DNA of 16,065 bases from a virus. The stretch's first letter is position 1. Each line of letters starts with the position of its first letter. Position numbers and translations under genes: made by a program. This document shows positions 552-5,897 of this stretch, piece by piece. The notes beneath the pieces are model-generated. The model was not told where the DNA came from and did not search any database. It was given only the letters and a program-made list of their open reading frames with translations. Location of the stretch: IMG/VR virus record IMGVR_UViG_3300009514_000697; one strand, written 5' to 3'.

Positions 552-725
552 TTAAAGTTTTATCAAAACGGGTGGTTCGCAACTATCACATTCACCACCA
601 AAATTGTAGTAGCACTGCCTACAAAAATAACTATAACAAACAGAACATTGGTAAAAGGCTTTCCTTGGTTTAATGTGTTCATTTGTTTCACAATATGGTC
701 TTTTTGTTTTTTTTTTATTTTTCAT
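552..725 (-). CDS. Cys-rich micro-protein, 57 aa, putative zinc-ribbon/treble-clef (MKNKKKTKRPYCETNEHIKPRKAFYQCSVCYSYFCRQCYYNFGGECDSCEPPVLIKL)
   Basis: Hand translation from ATG 725 to TAA 552-554. It has seven Cys arranged C-x2-C-x4-C-x2-C-x7-C-x2-C. AGGTGG lies 4 nt upstream of the ATG. It is below the 60-aa cutoff of the ORF track. Confidence 0.45.
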   Translation of the reverse strand: MKNKKKTKRPYCETNEHIKPRKAFYQCSVCYSYFCRQCYYNFGGECDSCEPPVLIKL

Positions 726-919
726 CTAACCACCTATGTCCTTTATTAAATTTTACCATATAGAAAAACCAATGTCCTATTTCGTGCAATAGATACTTAA
801 ACATTATGATAACGGGTGCTCTTTTTATATGTATTGAATTTGAAAACGGATGGTAGCAAGCCTTATCACTAGATGTTATCCATTGTGGCAATTCTTTGTG
901 TATGATTATTTTGGGTAAT

Positions 920-1015
920 TTAATTTTCACTAACTTCATACCAGATTTCATTATCGACTTCATACCAGACTTCATTCCAGACTTCGTTTTCTATCTCTTG
1001 AAATATGTTATTCAT
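920..1015 (-). CDS. fifth, truncated mini-ORF of the repeat-gene series, 31 aa (MNNIFQEIENEVWNEVWYEVDNEIWYEVSEN)
   Basis: Its ATG at 1015 overlaps the TGA of the previous mini-ORF as ATGA. It has the same MNNIFQEIEN leader as the four larger copies. It is below the ORF-track cutoff. Confidence 0.3.
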   Translation of the reverse strand: MNNIFQEIENEVWNEVWYEVDNEIWYEVSEN

Positions 1016-1245
1016 GATAATTTTTTACAGACTTCTTTCCAGACTTCATTCCCGACTTCATTCCAGACTTCATTCCTGACTTCATACCAGACTTCAGCCC
1101 TGACTTCATTCCAGACTTCATTACTGACTTCCTTCCAGACTTCATTATCGACTTCATACCAGACTTCATTACTGACTTCCTTCCAGACTTCATTATCGAC
1201 TTCATACCAGACTTCATTTTCTATCTCTTGAAATATGTTATTCAT
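1012..1245 (-). CDS. repeat mini-protein copy 4, 77 aa. It starts MNNIFQEIEN, continues as x-E-V-x tetrapeptide repeats and ends CKKLS.
   Basis: ATG lies inside the conserved junction module. AGGAA lies 9 nt upstream. Its TGA stop overlaps the next ATG. Whether this frame is the coding frame is not settled. Confidence 0.4.
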   Translation of the reverse strand: MNNIFQEIENEVWYEVDNEVWKEVSNEVWYEVDNEVWKEVSNEVWNEVRAEVWYEVRNEVWNEVGNEVWKEVCKKLS

Positions 1246-1487
1246 GATAATTCATTCCTGACTTCATTACTGACTTCATACCAGACTTCTTTCCAGACTT
1301 CATTCTCGACTTCATTACTGACTTCATTACTGACTTCCTTCCAGACTTTATTCCAGACTTCTTTCCTGACTTCATTCTCGACTTCATACCAGACTTCATT
1401 ACTGACTTCATTACTGACTTCTTTCCTGACTTCATTCCAGACTTCATTCCAGACTTCGTTTTCTATTTCTTTAAATATGTTATTCAT
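1242..1487 (-). CDS. repeat mini-protein copy 3, 81 aa. It starts MNNIFKEIEN, continues as (x-E-V-x)n and ends ELS.
   Basis: Same architecture as copy 4, with ATGA overlaps at both ends. Confidence 0.4.
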   Translation of the reverse strand: MNNIFKEIENEVWNEVWNEVRKEVSNEVSNEVWYEVENEVRKEVWNKVWKEVSNEVSNEVENEVWKEVWYEVSNEVRNELS

Positions 1488-1669
1488 AATAATTCTTTCC
1501 TGACTTCATTCCAGACTTCATTACTGACTTCATACCAGACTTCATTACTGACTTCATTACTGACTTCATACCAGACTTCATTCCTGACTTCATTCTCGAC
1601 TTCATACCAGACTTCATTCCCGACTTCATTCCAGACTTCATTTTCTATCTCTTGAAATATGTTATTCAT
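1484..1669 (-). CDS. repeat mini-protein copy 2, 61 aa. It starts MNNIFQEIEN, continues as (x-E-V-x)n and ends ELL.
   Basis: Same architecture, with ATGA overlaps at both ends. Confidence 0.4.
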   Translation of the reverse strand: MNNIFQEIENEVWNEVGNEVWYEVENEVRNEVWYEVSNEVSNEVWYEVSNEVWNEVRKELL

Positions 1670-1935
1670 GATAATTCATTCCTGACTTCATACCAGACTT
1701 CAGCCCTGACTTCATACCAGACTTCATTCCCGACTTCATTCCAGACTTCATTCCAGACTTCTTTCCAGACTTCAGCCCTGACTTCATACCAGACTTCATT
1801 CCCGACTTCATTCCAGACTTCATTACTGACTTCAGCCCTGACTTCATACCAGACTTCATTCCCGACTTCATTCCAGACTTCATTCAAGACTTCATTCCAG
1901 ACTTCGTTTTCTATTTCTTTAAATATGTTATTCAT
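1666..1935 (-). CDS. repeat mini-protein copy 1, 89 aa. It starts MNNIFKEIEN, continues as (x-E-V-x)n and ends ELS.
   Basis: First gene of the series. Its ATG at 1935 lies ~16 nt after a perfect hairpin. Confidence 0.4.
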   Translation of the reverse strand: MNNIFKEIENEVWNEVLNEVWNEVGNEVWYEVRAEVSNEVWNEVGNEVWYEVRAEVWKEVWNEVWNEVGNEVWYEVRAEVWYEVRNELS

Positions 1936-1950
1936 ATTTATCCAATAAAA

Positions 1951-1980
1951 TAAAACAACAATTAAATAATTGTTGTTTTA
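1951..1980 (-). terminator. perfect palindromic hairpin (AAAACAACAATT-aaat-AATTGTTGTTTT) followed on the minus strand by ATTTTATT. Candidate intrinsic terminator and boundary between the upstream genes and the repeat array.
   Basis: 12-14 bp perfect inverted repeat with a U-rich tail. It sits 28 nt downstream of the stop at 2008. The stem is AT-rich, so the predicted stability is modest. Confidence 0.4.
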
Positions 1981-2007: not shown

Positions 2008-2346
2008 TTAGTCTTTAGCGATCCTTACTTCTTCTGTAAGATAATCGTACTCATAACTACCTTCGATTTCCCAATTACCCGCAGGTATTTCGATAGTATC
2101 ATGTCGTGATTCGATTATGCATTTAACTTTAGCGGGTTTTTCGTTTCTCATATACATCAAATTTTCGTTTTCTTCATGTTGGTATAAACTCACACCGTCC
2201 ATGTCTTCAACCAAATGATGATTACCAGTAACTTCGGAATCTGCTACTTTATAATATCCTTTTTTCGGAATTATTTTTTTTACATTTTTGGGAATGCCTT
2301 TTTTTAATTGGTAAAAATTAACTTCCCCATGACTTGCGTGTAACAT
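2008..2346 (-). CDS. hypothetical protein, 112 aa, His/Glu-rich, possibly a small metal-binding beta protein
   Basis: ATG at 2346. AAAGGAG lies 7 nt upstream. No confident family assignment. Confidence 0.6.
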   Translation of the reverse strand: MLHASHGEVNFYQLKKGIPKNVKKIIPKKGYYKVADSEVTGNHHLVEDMDGVSLYQHEENENLMYMRNEKPAKVKCIIESRHDTIEIPAGNWEIEGSYEYDYLTEEVRIAKD

Positions 2347-2365: not shown

Positions 2366-3328
2366 TTATTTTATGTTGAATGTTTTTAAATTGTCTCTTC
2401 CGTTATGTCGAAACTTCATGGCATCTTCGAGTGTTTTTATATGTGGTGGGACTGCTTCTAAATGAAAAATACCTGTTGTTTGGTTTTTCATTTTAACATG
2501 GGGTGCATATTGTATATTCTTAAATATAGAAGCCATATCTAATAGCTCATATTCTGATTTTACCCACCACAAATTATTTTTGTATTTTTCCCAGGTATCT
2601 ATGATTTTACCTTTTGAAACCATTCTATCAATGCCATATTTTCTAATAAATTCTGCTCTGATATCTGCATTTTTTTCTTTATTAAAAAAATCAAGAGATA
2701 GATCCTCTGCTTTGGTGATAACTAAGTATTTTGGAACTTTTACACCATTCAGATGATACAATTTTAGACCTTTTTTTCCAGCATAAATTAAAGAAGGGCC
2801 ATTTTCACAATGCAACCCTTTTTCGTTTTTATTTATTTCAATAGGTTTTTGAGTAACCACACAAAAATCGTTACAAGCCCAAACAACCCCAAGGAAAGAA
2901 AGTTTTTTGGTTATGTTGAATTTTTTTCTTTTCTTTAATTTTAAAACTTCAGAATCAAAATAATCATAAAAAGAATACCAAGAATCGAAACTTCCATATA
3001 TGTATGGCATTACTATGTTATTGTTTTCAACAAGTTTTTTTGCTTTTATTTTGTGTTTTTCATCACAATCAGCAATAATGGTTTCTGTAATTTTGATCTT
3101 TGCTTTTGAAAGCAATTTTAACAGAACCACTTGAAACCAACCTTCATGCGGATTATCCGCAAGAAAAATAGGGATTTTTTTTCTACTCATTACGCCTTCA
3201 TAAAATTCATCAATTATACTTCTGGCATAATCTTTATCAAATCTTTCAGTAGACAATCCAATTTTTATCCATTTATCTTTATAAACTGAAAGTTTTTTTC
3301 TTTGTTCGTCTGTAAGTGATGTTATCAA
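2366..3328 (-). CDS. hypothetical protein, 320 aa, with a TTG start
   Basis: The first in-frame start is TTG at 3328. TAAGGAG lies exactly 8 nt upstream of it. The next in-frame ATG is 46 codons further in. No recognised domain. Confidence 0.6.
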   Translation of the reverse strand: MITSLTDEQRKKLSVYKDKWIKIGLSTERFDKDYARSIIDEFYEGVMSRKKIPIFLADNPHEGWFQVVLLKLLSKAKIKITETIIADCDEKHKIKAKKLVENNNIVMPYIYGSFDSWYSFYDYFDSEVLKLKKRKKFNITKKLSFLGVVWACNDFCVVTQKPIEINKNEKGLHCENGPSLIYAGKKGLKLYHLNGVKVPKYLVITKAEDLSLDFFNKEKNADIRAEFIRKYGIDRMVSKGKIIDTWEKYKNNLWWVKSEYELLDMASIFKNIQYAPHVKMKNQTTGIFHLEAVPPHIKTLEDAMKFRHNGRDNLKTFNIK

Positions 3329-3394
3329 AATATTATCTCCTTATTAAGTTTTTAAGTAACATTCTAATATATGATATGAAAGTAAAGTTAAACA

Positions 3395-3538
3395 TTAGTA
3401 ACCCGCAAACCCTATGTAATTGTCTTCGAGCACAAAATAAGTGGTCATGGTAACTGTACATGTCTGGTTTTGTTCATTGTAATTCGGTTTTAGAATGGAG
3501 CTATCTTTTAATTGTTTTTCGATTTCGGATTTATCCAT
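3395..3538 (-). CDS. possible 47-aa micro-ORF (MDKSEIEKQLKDSSILKPNYNEQNQTCTVTMTTYFVLEDNYIGFAGY)
   Basis: Open from ATG 3538 to TAA 3395. It has no SD and lies inside what may be a leader, so coding is doubtful. Confidence 0.2.
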   Translation of the reverse strand: MDKSEIEKQLKDSSILKPNYNEQNQTCTVTMTTYFVLEDNYIGFAGY

Positions 3539-3540
3539 AC

Positions 3541-3569
3541 TTATTATGTTTCATAAATTTTAGTGTCAA
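3541..3569 (-). promoter_or_regulatory. sigma70-like promoter candidate reading leftward. On the minus strand the -35 is TTGACA (3569..3564), the spacer is 17 bp and the -10 is TAATAA (3546..3541).
   Basis: Perfect -35 hexamer but a weak -10. It lies in the 460-bp region without long ORFs between the micro-gene run and the 320-aa gene. In AT-rich DNA such matches are common by chance. Confidence 0.25.
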
Positions 3570-3795
3570 AAACACAATTTACAAAAAATTTAGCTTTTTC
3601 TAATGCTTTTGTCCAGTAATAATACATCTAAGCGGAAATATAAGCATTAAAACCTAATAAATGGGTTTTTTTATAAATCTACCACCATTATTTCATGCAA
3701 GTTCCATCGTATCCAGACCAATAAATATCTTATAGTCTGGCAGTAAGTTTTTATTTGTTTCTGTTTCAATGTACATTTTTATTTATCATAAGGTA

Positions 3796-3927
3796 TTATT
3801 GAGGTTTATCTTTAGAACACCAGATACACCATTCTTCAGGTTGCCAAGGAGGTTTGATGTATTGGTGTTTACGAAAAACCATGCATTTTATTTTACCCCA
3901 CACATCATCTAAGTAAATCTTTTTCAT
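3796..3927 (-). CDS. micro-protein, 43 aa (MKKIYLDDVWGKIKCMVFRKHQYIKPPWQPEEWCIWCSKDKPQ)
   Basis: Hand translation. AAGGA lies 3-4 nt upstream of the ATG. It has a CxxC pair near the C-terminus and is last in a chain of four coupled small genes. Confidence 0.35.
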   Translation of the reverse strand: MKKIYLDDVWGKIKCMVFRKHQYIKPPWQPEEWCIWCSKDKPQ

Positions 3928-3940
3928 AATTCCTTTTCAA

Positions 3941-4096
3941 TCAGCTTATTAAAATCATGCACTTGTTTTCTGGCTTTTGAATTGTGAACCGTTTTAAGTT
4001 GTGGGTATATCTGTTTCCAAAGTTATAACAAGCAGATAGACCGTTTAAATAATAAACAGTCGCTTCTTCTTTACAATTAAGATAATTACAGTTCAT
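3941..4096 (-). CDS. micro-protein, 51 aa with four Cys (MNCNYLNCKEEATVYYLNGLSACYNFGNRYTHNLKRFTIQKPENKCMILIS)
   Basis: Its ATG at 4096 overlaps the TGA of the upstream micro-gene as ATGA. It is below the ORF cutoff. Confidence 0.4.
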   Translation of the reverse strand: MNCNYLNCKEEATVYYLNGLSACYNFGNRYTHNLKRFTIQKPENKCMILIS

Positions 4097-4242
4097 CTGT
4101 TTTCTCTTATAGTTGCACTGCGATTTCTGTGATAAGTATCCATAGCTTCAATAAAAGATTTCAAAAGACTTTCCATATTATTCACTTCCTTATTAGAGGG
4201 GGCCGAAATATATACAGTGAAAGATTTTCTTTTAAGAGTCAT
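4093..4242 (-). CDS. micro-protein, 49 aa (MTLKRKSFTVYISAPSNKEVNNMESLLKSFIEAMDTYHRNRSATIRENR). Alternatively a 27-aa form from the ATG at 4176, which has AAGGAAG 8 nt upstream.
   Basis: The ATG at 4242 lies 1 nt after the TAA of the upstream 59-aa gene. The frame runs to TGA 4093-4095. Confidence 0.35.
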   Translation of the reverse strand: MTLKRKSFTVYISAPSNKEVNNMESLLKSFIEAMDTYHRNRSATIRENR

Positions 4243-4243
4243 T

Positions 4244-4423
4244 TTAAATTACCCAATCGGTAAAGACAAGTTGTTCAACATAGCTTTGAAATAGTTCTTT
4301 GATGGATTCTTTTTCTCTGGTTAGACCTAGAAAGTTCACCGCTATCCCTATAGGGAACACTAAAGGGAAAAGCAAAATACTGATTCCTTTCATAAAAATA
4401 TTTGTGAATTTTTTGCCCTTCAT
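4244..4423 (-). CDS. membrane micro-protein, 59 aa (MKGKKFTNIFMKGISILLFPLVFPIGIAVNFLGLTREKESIKELFQSYVEQLVFTDWVI)
   Basis: AAGGAG lies 7 nt upstream of ATG 4423. It has one clear hydrophobic helix. It is 1 aa below the ORF cutoff. The plus-strand 65-aa ORF 4299-4496 across the same DNA is judged spurious. Confidence 0.55.
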   Translation of the reverse strand: MKGKKFTNIFMKGISILLFPLVFPIGIAVNFLGLTREKESIKELFQSYVEQLVFTDWVI

Positions 4424-4588
4424 TTATGTTCTCCTTGCTGTAGTTTTTAATGGAAGAAGTTTGATATGTAATATTTCTATTCTAGTAATCCAATAGTATG
4501 TAACGATTAAGTTACTTATGTTTAAAAAAGCCTTGATATTGTGTACATCAGAATGGGAATAATCATCGGGTTCAATTTCCAGCATCAT
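4424..4588 (-). CDS. micro-protein, 54 aa (MMLEIEPDDYSHSDVHNIKAFLNISNLIVTYYWITRIEILHIKLLPLKTTARRT)
   Basis: AGGTGA lies 6 nt upstream of ATGATG 4588. Its TAA is immediately followed by the ATG of the 59-aa gene. Confidence 0.5.
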   Translation of the reverse strand: MMLEIEPDDYSHSDVHNIKAFLNISNLIVTYYWITRIEILHIKLLPLKTTARRT

Positions 4589-4657
4589 TTTTAGTCACCT
4601 GCTTTTTTCCACAGTTCATTTATCTTTCTCTCAATATTGGAATATTCCATCAAGATT

Positions 4658-4840
4658 TCACTCATTTAGCATTCTTCGTTTTCCTAGTTTTTTAACTTCA
4701 CCATTTTTATTCATTATGAGAAAAATCTGTTTACAGCTACAGGTAATGTCTATCGGGTATTCCCATCTGAAAATGTGTTCTGTGGTGAACGATTCTACGC
4801 ATTTCAAATTGGGGCATTTAATATGTACAGGTCTACTCAT
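4658..4840 (-). CDS. small Cys-containing protein, 60 aa, possible zinc ribbon (C-x4-C ... C-x-C)
   Basis: ORF track. ATGA overlap with the upstream 79-aa gene. Cys spacing KCPNLKC ... CSC. Confidence 0.5.
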   Translation of the reverse strand: MSRPVHIKCPNLKCVESFTTEHIFRWEYPIDITCSCKQIFLIMNKNGEVKKLGKRRMLNE

Positions 4841-5076
4841 GTGCTATGAACCTTTCCCCCTAGTGCTTTGACCAGTTCGGCAACAATCGCAGGTATATAA
4901 CCTTCATCTCTTGTGTAATCGAAATCGGCAAGTTCGTCTAGTTTGGAATCTTCATCTTCGATTTCATCTTGGGTATATTTCCCTTTGACCAAATAACAAG
5001 AACCATTATCATAATAATAGATAGTGAAATTTCCTGTTTTTATGGCTTTTTGTATCTCTTTTTCTTTCTTAGTCAT
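4837..5076 (-). CDS. hypothetical acidic protein, 79 aa
   Basis: ORF track. The ATG at 5076 lies 3 nt after the stop of the 41-aa peptide gene. Confidence 0.55.
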   Translation of the reverse strand: MTKKEKEIQKAIKTGNFTIYYYDNGSCYLVKGKYTQDEIEDEDSKLDELADFDYTRDEGYIPAIVAELVKALGGKVHST

Positions 5077-5079
5077 GTT

Positions 5080-5205
5080 TTAGTTACTCCCAATTTCATA
5101 TCCTATTGTAATTAATTTTACTGCCACCCCGATCCAGAAGCAGACCCACACCCAAGTAGGTGCAGACAAAGCGAACAGTACCCAACTCAAAACGATTATA
5201 AACAT
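5080..5205 (-). CDS. hydrophobic micro-peptide, 41 aa (MFIIVLSWVLFALSAPTWVWVCFWIGVAVKLITIGYEIGSN)
   Basis: Hand translation. TAAGGAAAA lies ~9 nt upstream of ATG 5205. It is almost entirely one or two transmembrane helices. Confidence 0.45.
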   Translation of the reverse strand: MFIIVLSWVLFALSAPTWVWVCFWIGVAVKLITIGYEIGSN

Positions 5206-5217
5206 TTTATTTTTTCC

Positions 5218-5532
5218 TTATTTGTAAAGATTATAAGCAAACGCTTCTTCTGAAATACCGACAACGGCATTGTGGATATTGTTTATATGCGGTATCACAT
5301 ACCTATGTGTTTTAACTTGGATTGTTTTTACTTCCATATCTTCTGGTGTTCTCTGCCAACCCCATGAAGATGTGATATCAATTGGAACGGAAAACGAAAT
5401 AACAGGATCAGTTCTCAAGTGTTTTGGTATCCTGAAGAAGTATTTTATGTTTTTAAGAATCCCATGATCTTGTTCTACCACTTGAATCAACTTCAAGAGT
5501 ATTAAATCATGTTCCAGTTCTATGAAATTCAT
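5218..5532 (-). CDS. hypothetical protein, 104 aa
   Basis: ORF track. AAGGTG lies 8 nt upstream of ATG 5532. It is the first gene after the terminator downstream of MVP. Confidence 0.6.
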   Translation of the reverse strand: MNFIELEHDLILLKLIQVVEQDHGILKNIKYFFRIPKHLRTDPVISFSVPIDITSSWGWQRTPEDMEVKTIQVKTHRYVIPHINNIHNAVVGISEEAFAYNLYK

Positions 5533-5693
5533 TTTACTTACACCTTACGGTATTCAAATACATGGACAAGAATTGCTCCACCTTGTAATTGACAGGAGCC
5601 TAAATGTTTTCGGTTTAATGAAAAAAATTCTTCAACCGTATTGGTTTCTGGCATCGGGATGGGGTATTTCCAGATAGTTTTAAACATACTTAG

Positions 5694-5736
5694 AACATAT
5701 ATTCTAAGCCAAAAGAAAATCCTAATTTTTGGACTT
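5694..5736 (-). promoter_or_regulatory. bipartite conserved intergenic element. Minus-strand AAGTCCAAAA, then 21 nt, then AGAATATATGTT. A second AAGTCCAAA copy sits at 5747-5757.
   Basis: The same two exact motifs recur with 22-nt spacing at 11778-11821. In plus-strand form they are TTTTGGACTT and AACATATATTCT. Both sites lie just upstream, in the transcription direction, of a gene start. This makes it a candidate phage promoter or operator. Confidence 0.35.
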
Positions 5737-5758
5737 TTTTATAAATTTGGACTTTTCT

Positions 5759-5790
5759 ATAAAAAAAGCACCCTACTTGCGTAATGTGCT
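5759..5790 (-). terminator. candidate rho-independent terminator ~110 nt downstream of the MVP stop
   Basis: Minus strand AGCAC-AT-TAC-GCAA-GTA-GG-GTGCT followed by T8. This is a 5+3 bp interrupted stem with a GCAA tetraloop. Confidence 0.4.
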
Positions 5791-5897
5791 TTTCGCTATT
5801 ATGGAAAAACATGATGGGATTATGAGTCTTGATTTGTGGTTTTGGCAAGAATCCTAGTTGTTAGAATATCTCATTATACCCCACCATGCTTATATTT

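Follow-up and report, generated by a model that had tools for sequence, protein, structure and literature searches.

The viral metagenome contig IMGVR_UViG_3300009514_000697 (16,065 nt, analysed over its whole length and called the window here) carries a highly regular array of 12-nt repeats within positions 896-1948. We found that this array is best read on the minus strand as five overlapping mini-genes made of four-residue units of the form x-E-V-x (NEVx), and that the repeat is homologous to one lying inside proteins of the DUF6745 family (PF20530), a member of which is encoded two genes upstream of the array with a partner gene in between. The explanation that we favour, with a probability of roughly 0.6, is that the array is a detached DUF6745 repeat module, split into five coupled minus-strand mini-genes, whose products would act with DUF6745 and its partner, likely in counter-defence. 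The comparisons below establish the coding frame, the homology of the repeat to DUF6745, the linkage to that gene, the recurrence of the split layout together with its exclusion of internal arrays, and the rapid turnover of the repeats; the biochemical role proposed for the mini-proteins draws on analogy.

Coding frame of the repeat

Since three of the six frames are open across the repeat, open reading frames (ORFs) alone cannot decide which of them is coding, and the frame was decided by comparison with relatives. A phmmer search with the 89-aa product of mini-gene 1 matched 502 representative clusters at E<=1e-3, 108 of them at E<=1e-10. Among these, DUF6745 proteins of 300-600 aa scored best, with the alignment falling inside their arrays; eight of the top nine were of DUF6745 length, and six of these eight carried PF20530, four of them at or above the Pfam curated cut-off, while a seventh, P0052, is a DUF6745 member by sequence with ~48 NEV[RWGE] units. 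Using tblastn we found matches to the mini-protein in contigs L010 and L012, the first of which encodes at 5305-7002 a 565-aa DUF6745 member with ~70 NEVW, NEVR, NEVS, KEVW or DKVW units. A word-indexed search with the 89-aa product matched two short metagenome proteins, one of which, P0002, begins with an N-terminus resembling the 320-aa protein of the window and continues into NEVGNEMENEVRNEVWNEMW. Because the homologous arrays in DUF6745 proteins share their frame with the conserved domains that flank them, these alignments identify NEVx, with high confidence, as the coding frame of the window array. The initial annotation stated that it knew of no match to a described element, a statement that fails, as the repeat matches the DUF6745 internal repeat and has published functional analogues.

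That annotation had proposed a comparison of homologous arrays, which we carried out. In the NEVx frame the residues were kept while the Glu and Val codons varied across lineages, being GAA-GTC in the window, GAA-GTT in L006 and L010, GAG-GTG or GAG-ATG in L007 and GAG-GTA in L012 and L055; the replacement of V by M corresponds to two base changes. The frame equivalent to (MKSG)n was altered in relatives (MKFG, MRWG and others) and interrupted by stop codons in L007, L012, L055 and L110. What the family has in common is a period-4 amino-acid pattern (NEVx, SQVx, DSVx, SQLx, DNIx, SAVx) and no DNA word. As the amino-acid periodicity is shared and the DNA word is not, we rejected two of the three readings that had been offered for the array, an (MKSG)n protein and a non-coding binding array. 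The third, a family of coupled repeat-peptide genes, is supported in the NEVx frame both by the in-frame DUF6745 arrays and by the same tandem layout in many independent viral contigs.

Translation of the (MKSG)n frame is thus extremely improbable. Its ORFs, of 53-73 aa, are indeed open, as had been noted, and the most variable nucleotides are synonymous there. Against this stand the lack of conservation and the stop codons just described, an ATG in every unit that leaves no defined start, and no homologues in frame with DUF6745 domains. The plus strand also has open (FQTS)n ORFs within the array. A non-coding DNA element, in the form of 12-bp protein-binding sites of an iteron, origin or partition-like type or of a structural repeat, would account for the regular DNA core (GACTTCAT occurs 51 times, where shuffles expect 0.68) and for the strong GC skew over the array. 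We consider it very improbable, as related arrays conserve the period-4 amino-acid pattern and no DNA word, the homologous arrays are embedded in long ORFs that continue in frame into conserved domains, the 12-bp spacing is off the DNA helical repeat, and there was no Rfam match.

Organisation of the array

Tandem Repeats Finder reported a period of 12 with 72.7 copies at 1028-1905, together with a higher-order period of 182 nt, and parsing of the five minus-strand ORFs yielded 73 units. The array and the five ORFs, of 89, 61, 81, 77 and 31 aa, lie where they had been placed at the outset (Table 1). The claim that GACTTCAT is an invariant core was overstated; its copies are confined to the range 956-1895, whereas the hexamer GAAGTC (GACTTC on the plus strand) is present in 66 of the 73 units. 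The minus strand bears all large genes of the window.

All five mini-proteins open with MNNIF[Q/K]EIE and continue into x-E-V-x units, and mini-proteins 1-4 end in (N/K)EL(S/L) or KKLS, while mini-protein 5 ends in YEVSEN. Since an aliphatic residue recurs at each fourth position throughout M-NNIF-KEIE-NEVW...NELS, the leader (NNIF, KEIE) and the tail (NELS) are, by their register, degenerate capping units of the same repeat and not foreign sequence. The initial annotation had described overlapping stop and start codons between the mini-genes, and an ATGA overlap is present at all four internal junctions. It had also placed AGGAA 9 nt upstream of every start, which holds for three of the four internal starts; mini-gene 5 has no such motif, and mini-gene 1 has only GGA. 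Two variants of the junction module exist as stated, although their order, K, Q, K, Q, Q, is an imperfect alternation. The starts at 1935, 1669, 1487, 1245 and 1015 fall in frames 0, 1, 2, 0 and 1, a shift by one at each junction, so that the NEVx reading survives only if translation starts anew at every ATG. We also considered programmed frameshifting across the junctions but rejected it, as overlaps differ by lineage (4, 11 and 17 nt, which implies different shift directions) and no slippery site was found.

Composition of the repeat units

Among the 73 window units, position 1 is N in 45, Y in 14, K in 10 and A in 4; position 2 is E in 71 and K in 2; position 3 is V in 68, L in 4 and I in 1, and hence one of these three throughout; and position 4 is W in 33, S in 15, R in 11, G in 5, E in 3, D in 3, L in 2 and C in 1. 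Across the family (204 arrays, 3338 units), position 2 is Q in 37 %, S in 21 % and E in 17 %, position 3 is V in 63 %, L in 24 % and I in 13 %, and position 4 is the most variable at 3.5 bits (R 23 %, W 17 %, G 14 %, S 8 %, E 7 %, Y 6 %, D 6 %); 17 % Trp is extraordinary at any protein position. The window repeat thus has the properties of a DUF6745-type repeat: a strict period of 4, a polar residue at position 2, an aliphatic one at position 3, a position 4 that is the most variable and dominated by W, R and G, then S, E, D and Y, and significant similarity to in-frame DUF6745 arrays by both phmmer and tblastn. It shares with the internal repeat of L010 5305-7002, P0052 and the Mycobacterium phage prophiGD102-1 protein gp38 the succession of a polar residue, E, Q or S, then V, L or I, then a hypervariable W, R, G, S, E or D; in some lineages the NEVx motif itself is the same. 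It differs in lying outside the DUF6745 polypeptide, in five separate genes with their own starts and stops.

Position-4 codons across the family are mostly NGG (TGG for Trp; AGG for 448 of 792 Arg; GGG for 301 of 428 Gly), so that W, R and G interconvert by single first-base changes. In the core units of the window, the third positions of the Glu codon and of the four-fold-degenerate Val codon (unit positions 6 and 9) are invariant, unit positions 1, 10 and 11 are variable, and codon 4 is highly variable at its first two positions. This contrast between fixed third positions and variable others, which the initial annotation had taken to point to DNA-level constraint or very recent concerted expansion, is real, but it is no argument against the NEVx frame, as the same signature has been reported for the 12-bp repeat of gene 54 of phage Tweety, where Pham et al. 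read it as selection for variation (PMC2884959). Alternatively, the pattern could stem from a very recent amplification of a small number of older, distinct units. A diversity-generating retroelement was rejected as a source of the variation, as the window has no reverse transcriptase and the variable codons are NGG and not adenine-based.

The five mini-proteins are very acidic, with isoelectric points (pI) of ~4.1 and net charges of -9 to -16. DNA mimicry, which the pI had prompted us to consider, was not adopted for the family as a whole, since most relatives have neutral Q or S at position 2.

The DUF6745 family and its partner gene

The 320-aa protein P0003 of the window matches PF20530, whereas the mini-protein does not; the domain sits in the separate 320-aa gene. 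Homologues of this gene comprised 47 proteins, and 95 IMG/VR loci were collected. Most of the homologues carry a four-residue array of 4 to >60 units between an N-terminal part of ~75 aa and a conserved C-terminal part, with units such as SQVW/SQVE/SQVR, NQVW/DQVS, QEVW/REVG, DSVR/DSVW, SQLD/SQLR, DNIR/ENIG and SAVD/SAVG. P0003 and its nearest relative P0004 (58 % identity) are without it. DUF6745 matches phrog_31813, and among 185,579 species genomes it gave six matches, all in metagenome-assembled genomes, so that it is essentially a phage family. We found no literature on DUF6745 or PF20530.

The array is linked to the DUF6745 gene and to a partner gene encoding ~110 aa, and relatives of this partner match phrog_27831, which has no known function. 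The same neighbourhood of DUF6745 and partner recurs in relatives: the partner gene lies directly downstream of DUF6745 in L005, L008, L009, L010, L012, L026 and L098, and upstream in L051 and L068.

In GenBank phages there was no match for the whole window (megablast) or for the DUF6745 protein (tblastn), and the sole tblastn match of the mini-protein was gp38 of prophiGD102-1 (L093 2575-4020; MW584211 16546-17991). This protein, annotated as hypothetical, is a DUF6745 member (PF20530 E=6e-29) with ~50 (G/D)QL(W/R/G) units. Scanning IMG/VR for exact 18-mers turned up only four isolated chance matches, and a search of metagenome contigs with the back-translated leader pattern returned nothing, though it missed the window itself too.

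Split and internal layouts are mutually exclusive

We scanned the fetched loci for period-12 DNA outside the DUF6745 ORF and translated what was found, defining a mini-gene cluster as at least two head-to-tail tetrapeptide ORFs of 30-130 aa with overlapping stop and start codons beside a repeat-less DUF6745 gene. The window fits this definition of a stand-alone tandem cluster, and the same kind of layout occurs in L026, L032, L043, L051, L062, L068, L096 and L098. The clusters of L026, L032, L043, L051, L062 and L068 have start/stop overlaps and adjoin repeat-less DUF6745 genes, and some contain as many as 12 mini-genes (Table 1). Within the NEVx clade, a single 108-aa mini-gene immediately precedes a repeat-less DUF6745 gene and its partner in L098, and in L096 a mini-gene immediately follows such a gene; L104 carries mini-genes in tandem, and the arrays of L103 and L106 are internal.

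Among DUF6745 genes with 10 or more internal units, 0 of 27 had a mini-gene cluster nearby, versus 21 of 35 among those with fewer than 10 (Fisher p=2e-7), a figure whose weight is reduced because ORF criteria and de-duplication were crude, no more than 6 kb of flank was covered on each side and the statistics ignore phylogeny. The exclusion between internal arrays and mini-genes is also evident by eye. From these gene arrangements we read the two layouts as a fused-versus-split (Rosetta-stone) relation, in which the repeat module would work with DUF6745 in cis or in trans. Silent donor cassettes for DUF6745 were rejected as an explanation of the split loci, since the recipient gene there is without an array. 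No description of the stand-alone tandem-gene form was found in the literature searched; repeat-only genes that are split off and amplified in tandem, and the mutual exclusion between this layout and internal arrays, appear to be new.

Table 1. Features of the window and mini-gene clusters in other viral contigs
Feature	Contig	Position	Strand	Description
Mini-gene 1	window	1666-1935	minus	89 aa, M-NNIF-KEIE-(xEVx)19-NELS; net charge ~-16, 10 Trp; from ORF and translation
Mini-gene 2	window	1484-1669	minus	61 aa; ATGA overlap with gene 1; AGGAA 9 nt upstream
Mini-gene 3	window	1242-1487	minus	81 aa; ATGA overlap with gene 2; AGGAA 9 nt upstream
Mini-gene 4	window	1012-1245	minus	77 aa; ATGA overlap with gene 3; AGGAA 9 nt upstream
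Mini-gene 5	window	920-1015	minus	31 aa; degenerating units NEIW, YEVS; ATGA overlap with gene 4; without Shine-Dalgarno-like motif
Hairpin	window	1951-1980	minus	perfect 13-bp AT-rich stem, then UUUUAUUUUAUU (U-run); between partner gene and mini-gene 1
Partner of DUF6745	window	2008-2346	minus	~110 aa (112 aa); relatives match phrog_27831
DUF6745 protein P0003	window	2366-3328	minus	320 aa; PF20530 E=3.8e-9; AAGGAG Shine-Dalgarno upstream
HEIGH ORF (HExxH, metalloprotease-like)	window	715-939	minus	~74 aa; no Pfam or PHROG match; neighbour of the array, not claimed as a member of the system
Mini-gene cluster	L043	454-2701		12 mini-genes; MTLKDSVYNSVRNSVW...KSYDT; 11-nt overlaps
Mini-gene cluster	L062	2380-4501		12 mini-genes; MKRSLNNSVWHSVRNSV...NKINETIT; 17-nt overlaps
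Mini-gene cluster	L068	6746-8177		9 mini-genes; MNFTKPIK(xQLx)n...HKTNK
Mini-gene cluster	L051	6985-7707		4 mini-genes; end ...EYEF
Mini-gene clusters	L032			three clusters; end ...EYEY
Mini-gene clusters	L026	8043-9024 and 9961-10829		caps MNIFKTIEKQLW and MNIFETIKDQVLNQV, close to window cap MNNIFKEIENEVW

These loci bear directly on whether the array could be a selfish or neutral minisatellite, that is, a DUF6745 repeat fragment copied downstream and recently expanded by slippage, with the ORFs and ATGA overlaps as by-products and the peptides, should they be made, without function. The invariant synonymous sites at positions 6 and 9 do show very recent expansion, any stop-free repeat stays open, translation signals are weak at mini-genes 1 and 5, and no array is found in the short flank available for the nearest relative. 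Yet the Met cap, repeats, tail and overlapping restart are kept in lineages with diverged paralogues (L026, L032, L043, L062, L068), the layout is found specifically where DUF6745 has no array of its own, and although each junction shifts the frame, each restart restores the repeat frame. We therefore regard a functionless minisatellite as unlikely.

Repeat turnover and assembly

Unit numbers differ between close relatives despite flanks that are 98-100 % identical (24 versus 16 in P0006 and P0007; 9 versus 29 in P0012 and P0013). L026 8043-10829 and L029 7995-8505, whose flanks are 95-97 % identical, have 7 versus 2 mini-genes, with a whole cluster missing in L029. Assembly collapse may contribute to some of these copy-number differences, and the same caveat applies to the window, which is a metagenome contig; such arrays often break or collapse in assembly, and the exact unit and gene counts may be off. 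IMG/VR contigs that start or end inside DUF6745 arrays include L013, L018, L050, L052, L061, L082-L084, L088 and L089. DUF6745 repeats break short-read assemblies, and database proteins of the family are therefore often truncated.

With so many contigs ending inside such arrays, and with the short contigs L006 and L007 looking chimeric beyond the repeat, the five-gene structure itself might have been mis-assembled from one long internal array or from several strains. This is improbable: the junction modules hold ~40 nt of unique sequence in two variants and a consistent order, the transitions to unique genes are clean on either flank, and independent contigs from other samples share the tandem layout, even if the numbers of genes and units could still be wrong.

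Expression signals

The well-defined genes of the window have AAGGAG 6-9 nt upstream. At the three internal mini-gene starts that combine AGGAA with an ATGA overlap, the arrangement fits termination-reinitiation as judged from these motifs. Between the partner gene and mini-gene 1, the hairpin at 1951-1980 folds as RNA with -16.5 kcal/mol (z=-4.2), and the mini-gene 1 start lies 16 nt further on. The hairpin and its U-run look like a terminator or attenuator, although a scan for consensus terminators passed it over, the G-C pairs of its stem being too few. Given this upstream hairpin and the weak GGA, expression of the mini-genes may depend on read-through from the DUF6745-partner operon. A promoter scan of the window performed no better than chance, and Rfam and tRNA scans of the window were empty.

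Predicted structure

An AlphaFold model of the array-bearing homologue P0017, built on a 38-sequence alignment, had a mean predicted local distance difference test score (pLDDT) of 84, and its 16-unit array (residues 78-141) was predicted as two helices, 77-111 and 114-139, with a break at mid-array (pLDDT ~70-79). A single-sequence model of the 89-aa mini-protein likewise gave helices at 3-44 and 46-88, split at mid-length. From these predictions we infer an antiparallel helical hairpin whose length would scale with unit number, its packing being assumed from the mid-array helix break.

Comparison with known dodecamer-encoded repeats

Three systems with 12-bp, four-residue units offer functional analogues. 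According to two reviews that cover mycobacteriophage Tweety, escape mutants of gp54 gain or lose tetrapeptide units, which tunes counter-defence against the Phrann or MichelleMyBell prophage systems, and the mechanism is still obscure (PMC9262239, PMC8549241). The gp54 repeat resembles ours in its 12-bp unit encoding [S/Y]-A-A-[G/W/Q] in tens of copies, in the prominence of W and G at the variable position, in copy number that differs among related phages, and in invariant third codon positions beside variable first and second ones, a pattern found in the window units too. It differs in flanking domains that are unrelated to DUF6745 (hhalign probability 0.1; phrog_3416 versus phrog_31813), in repeats that lie between two domains where the window proteins are repeat-only, and in that activity against Phrann gp29/30 has been shown for gp54 only.

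In the Rpn L/S toxin-antitoxin pair, a helix is extended by each unit of one hydrophobic and three charged or Gly residues, RpnL is blocked only by an RpnS of matching repeat number, and the authors suspect a phage factor behind the repeat variation (bioRxiv 10.1101/2023.05.02.539157). The likeness extends to dodecamer DNA repeats, strongly variable copy number and reported tandem gene duplication and, in the role proposed for the mini-proteins, to a small repeat protein acting on a larger partner, with repeat number setting specificity. Rpn differs in being a host defence nuclease with a gene-within-gene arrangement and few repeats, and the large partner in the window has no repeats to match. 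No Pfam, PADLOC or NCBIfam match to an Rpn (PD-(D/E)XK, YhgA-like) nuclease was found in the mini-protein, DUF6745 or the partner.

In the HsdS subunits of the type I restriction systems EcoR124I and EcoR124II, the recognition spacer is N6 or N7 depending on whether there are two or three TAEL units (PMC3874165). This is again a 12-bp four-residue unit, in an antiparallel coiled coil, of which one added copy changes specificity; HsdS has two to four such units between DNA-recognition domains, whereas the window has no target-recognition domains. The mini-protein matched the HsdS central helical region in PADLOC (E=4.4e-5, 21 bits), too weakly to claim homology, and PADLOC and NCBIfam gave nothing else for it.

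Small tandem genes with a conserved N-terminus and Trp-rich repeated motifs also recall precursors of ribosomally synthesised and post-translationally modified peptides, in which a leader precedes repeated Trp-containing cores for a maturation enzyme. We find this hardly credible here, as no radical-SAM enzyme, cyclase, protease or transporter is found among the ORFs of the 16-kb window, and in relatives the same repeat is internal to proteins of 300-600 aa.

Genomic context

The contig has ~34 % GC, one coding strand and many small ORFs, and also encodes a CCA-adding enzyme, a GDP-mannose 4,6-dehydratase and a homologue of the major vault protein (MVP); it looks like a fragment of a large phage. 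The vault-protein homologue, unusual on a phage-like contig, is an 867-aa protein encoded at 5898-8501 (minus strand) that matches Pfam MVP_shoulder with E=2e-22. In a phmmer search of PDB it matched eukaryotic major vault protein (E~1e-7), with residues 536-761 colinear with MVP 525-759 and a similar total length. Between the DUF6745 and vault-like genes, at 3333-5848 (minus strand), lie ~15 ORFs of 41-104 aa without family matches. Runs of very small ORFs are typical for accessory or early regions of large phages.

On the other side of the array, the HExxH ORF overlaps the end of mini-gene 5, and its likely ATG lies within the last degenerate unit, in the MKSG frame. Directly downstream of it, at 552-725 (minus strand), is a 57-aa Cys-rich, zinc-ribbon-like ORF (CSVCYSYFCRQCYYNFGGECDSC). 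Among the related loci, L008 has a gene for a pentapeptide-repeat protein at 7674-8375, 2 kb upstream of DUF6745. At 104-442 of L006, P0001 combines an NEVx mini-gene-like N-terminus (MKYPRKEIENEVRNGVFNEV...) in frame with a thymidylate-synthase fragment; this 516-bp contig, which differs in base composition at its far end, is probably chimeric, although the fusion could be real.

Discussion

We propose that the mini-genes are tandemly duplicated and translationally coupled, each encoding a small acidic x-E-V-x protein. With the frame shifted at every junction, the ribosome would have to terminate and then restart at each ATGA overlap. The aliphatic residue of each unit would be buried, leaving the hypervariable fourth residue (W, R, G, S, E or D, mostly from NGG codons) exposed. 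Slippage or unequal recombination, acting on 12-nt units as well as on whole genes, would lengthen, shorten and rearrange the arrays. Acting with DUF6745 and the partner protein, the mini-proteins would form a binding module tunable in length and surface for phage-host or phage-phage conflict, most likely counter-defence, and tandem duplication would supply both dosage and a ready panel of lengths (31 to 89 aa).

Several observations weigh against this explanation. We infer the translation of the mini-genes from their sequence, and the expression signals fall short of proof: mini-gene 1 has only its weak GGA and follows the terminator-like hairpin, and mini-gene 5 has no Shine-Dalgarno-like motif. 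Open frames are expected in a perfect repeat and thus provide no independent evidence, and the five mini-genes are recent duplicates, so that their shared junctions count as one event. The contig of the closest relative, L005, shows no array in the 145 bp after its partner gene. The mini-protein models are unstable, the best having a pLDDT of 79 and the other four 36-66, and confidence in the array of the P0017 two-helix prediction is moderate. A strict four-residue period does not fit the hydrophobic seam of an ideal alpha-helix, and position 4 is often Gly in relatives. Finally, the split form has no flanking domains to space, so the ruler logic of gp54 and HsdS is not directly applicable; as repeat-only proteins rule out such a logic, the repeat itself must be an interaction surface, as in Rpn.

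A bolder version, to which we attach only a small chance, is that the mini-genes encode pre-diversified, length-coded helical hairpins acting in trans, which would either insert into the pair formed by the repeat-less DUF6745 protein and its partner and so retarget it, or mimic four-residue-repeat helices of host defence proteins of the Rpn or HsdS type. If this were true, a phage with several lengths could neutralise several host variants, and matching repeat number would decide binding in Rpn-type or HsdS candidates. The clusters would then be the proposed "phage factor" driving four-residue-repeat variation in host defence genes, and would represent a new class of modular, tunable anti-defence genes, widespread in uncultured phages.

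Four-residue repeats encoded by dodecamers are coming to be seen as a simple means of quickly retuning protein-protein or protein-DNA specificity in phage-host conflict. HsdS, Rpn and Tweety gp54 are known to work in this way, each as one protein whose array is modest. A module of this kind is found here in a large phage family, DUF6745, in two interchangeable layouts, either internal or as up to a dozen small genes, and the fused-versus-split argument suggests that it works with DUF6745 and the partner protein. For the hundreds of puzzling 12-bp arrays in phage metagenomes, this provides an annotation rule that gives both frame and genes, and gp38 of prophiGD102-1 from Mycobacterium abscessus, as a member in a cultured host, offers a tractable handle on DUF6745. 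Should the module indeed act as a tunable anti-defence device, each tandem cluster would amount to a natural library of specificity variants.

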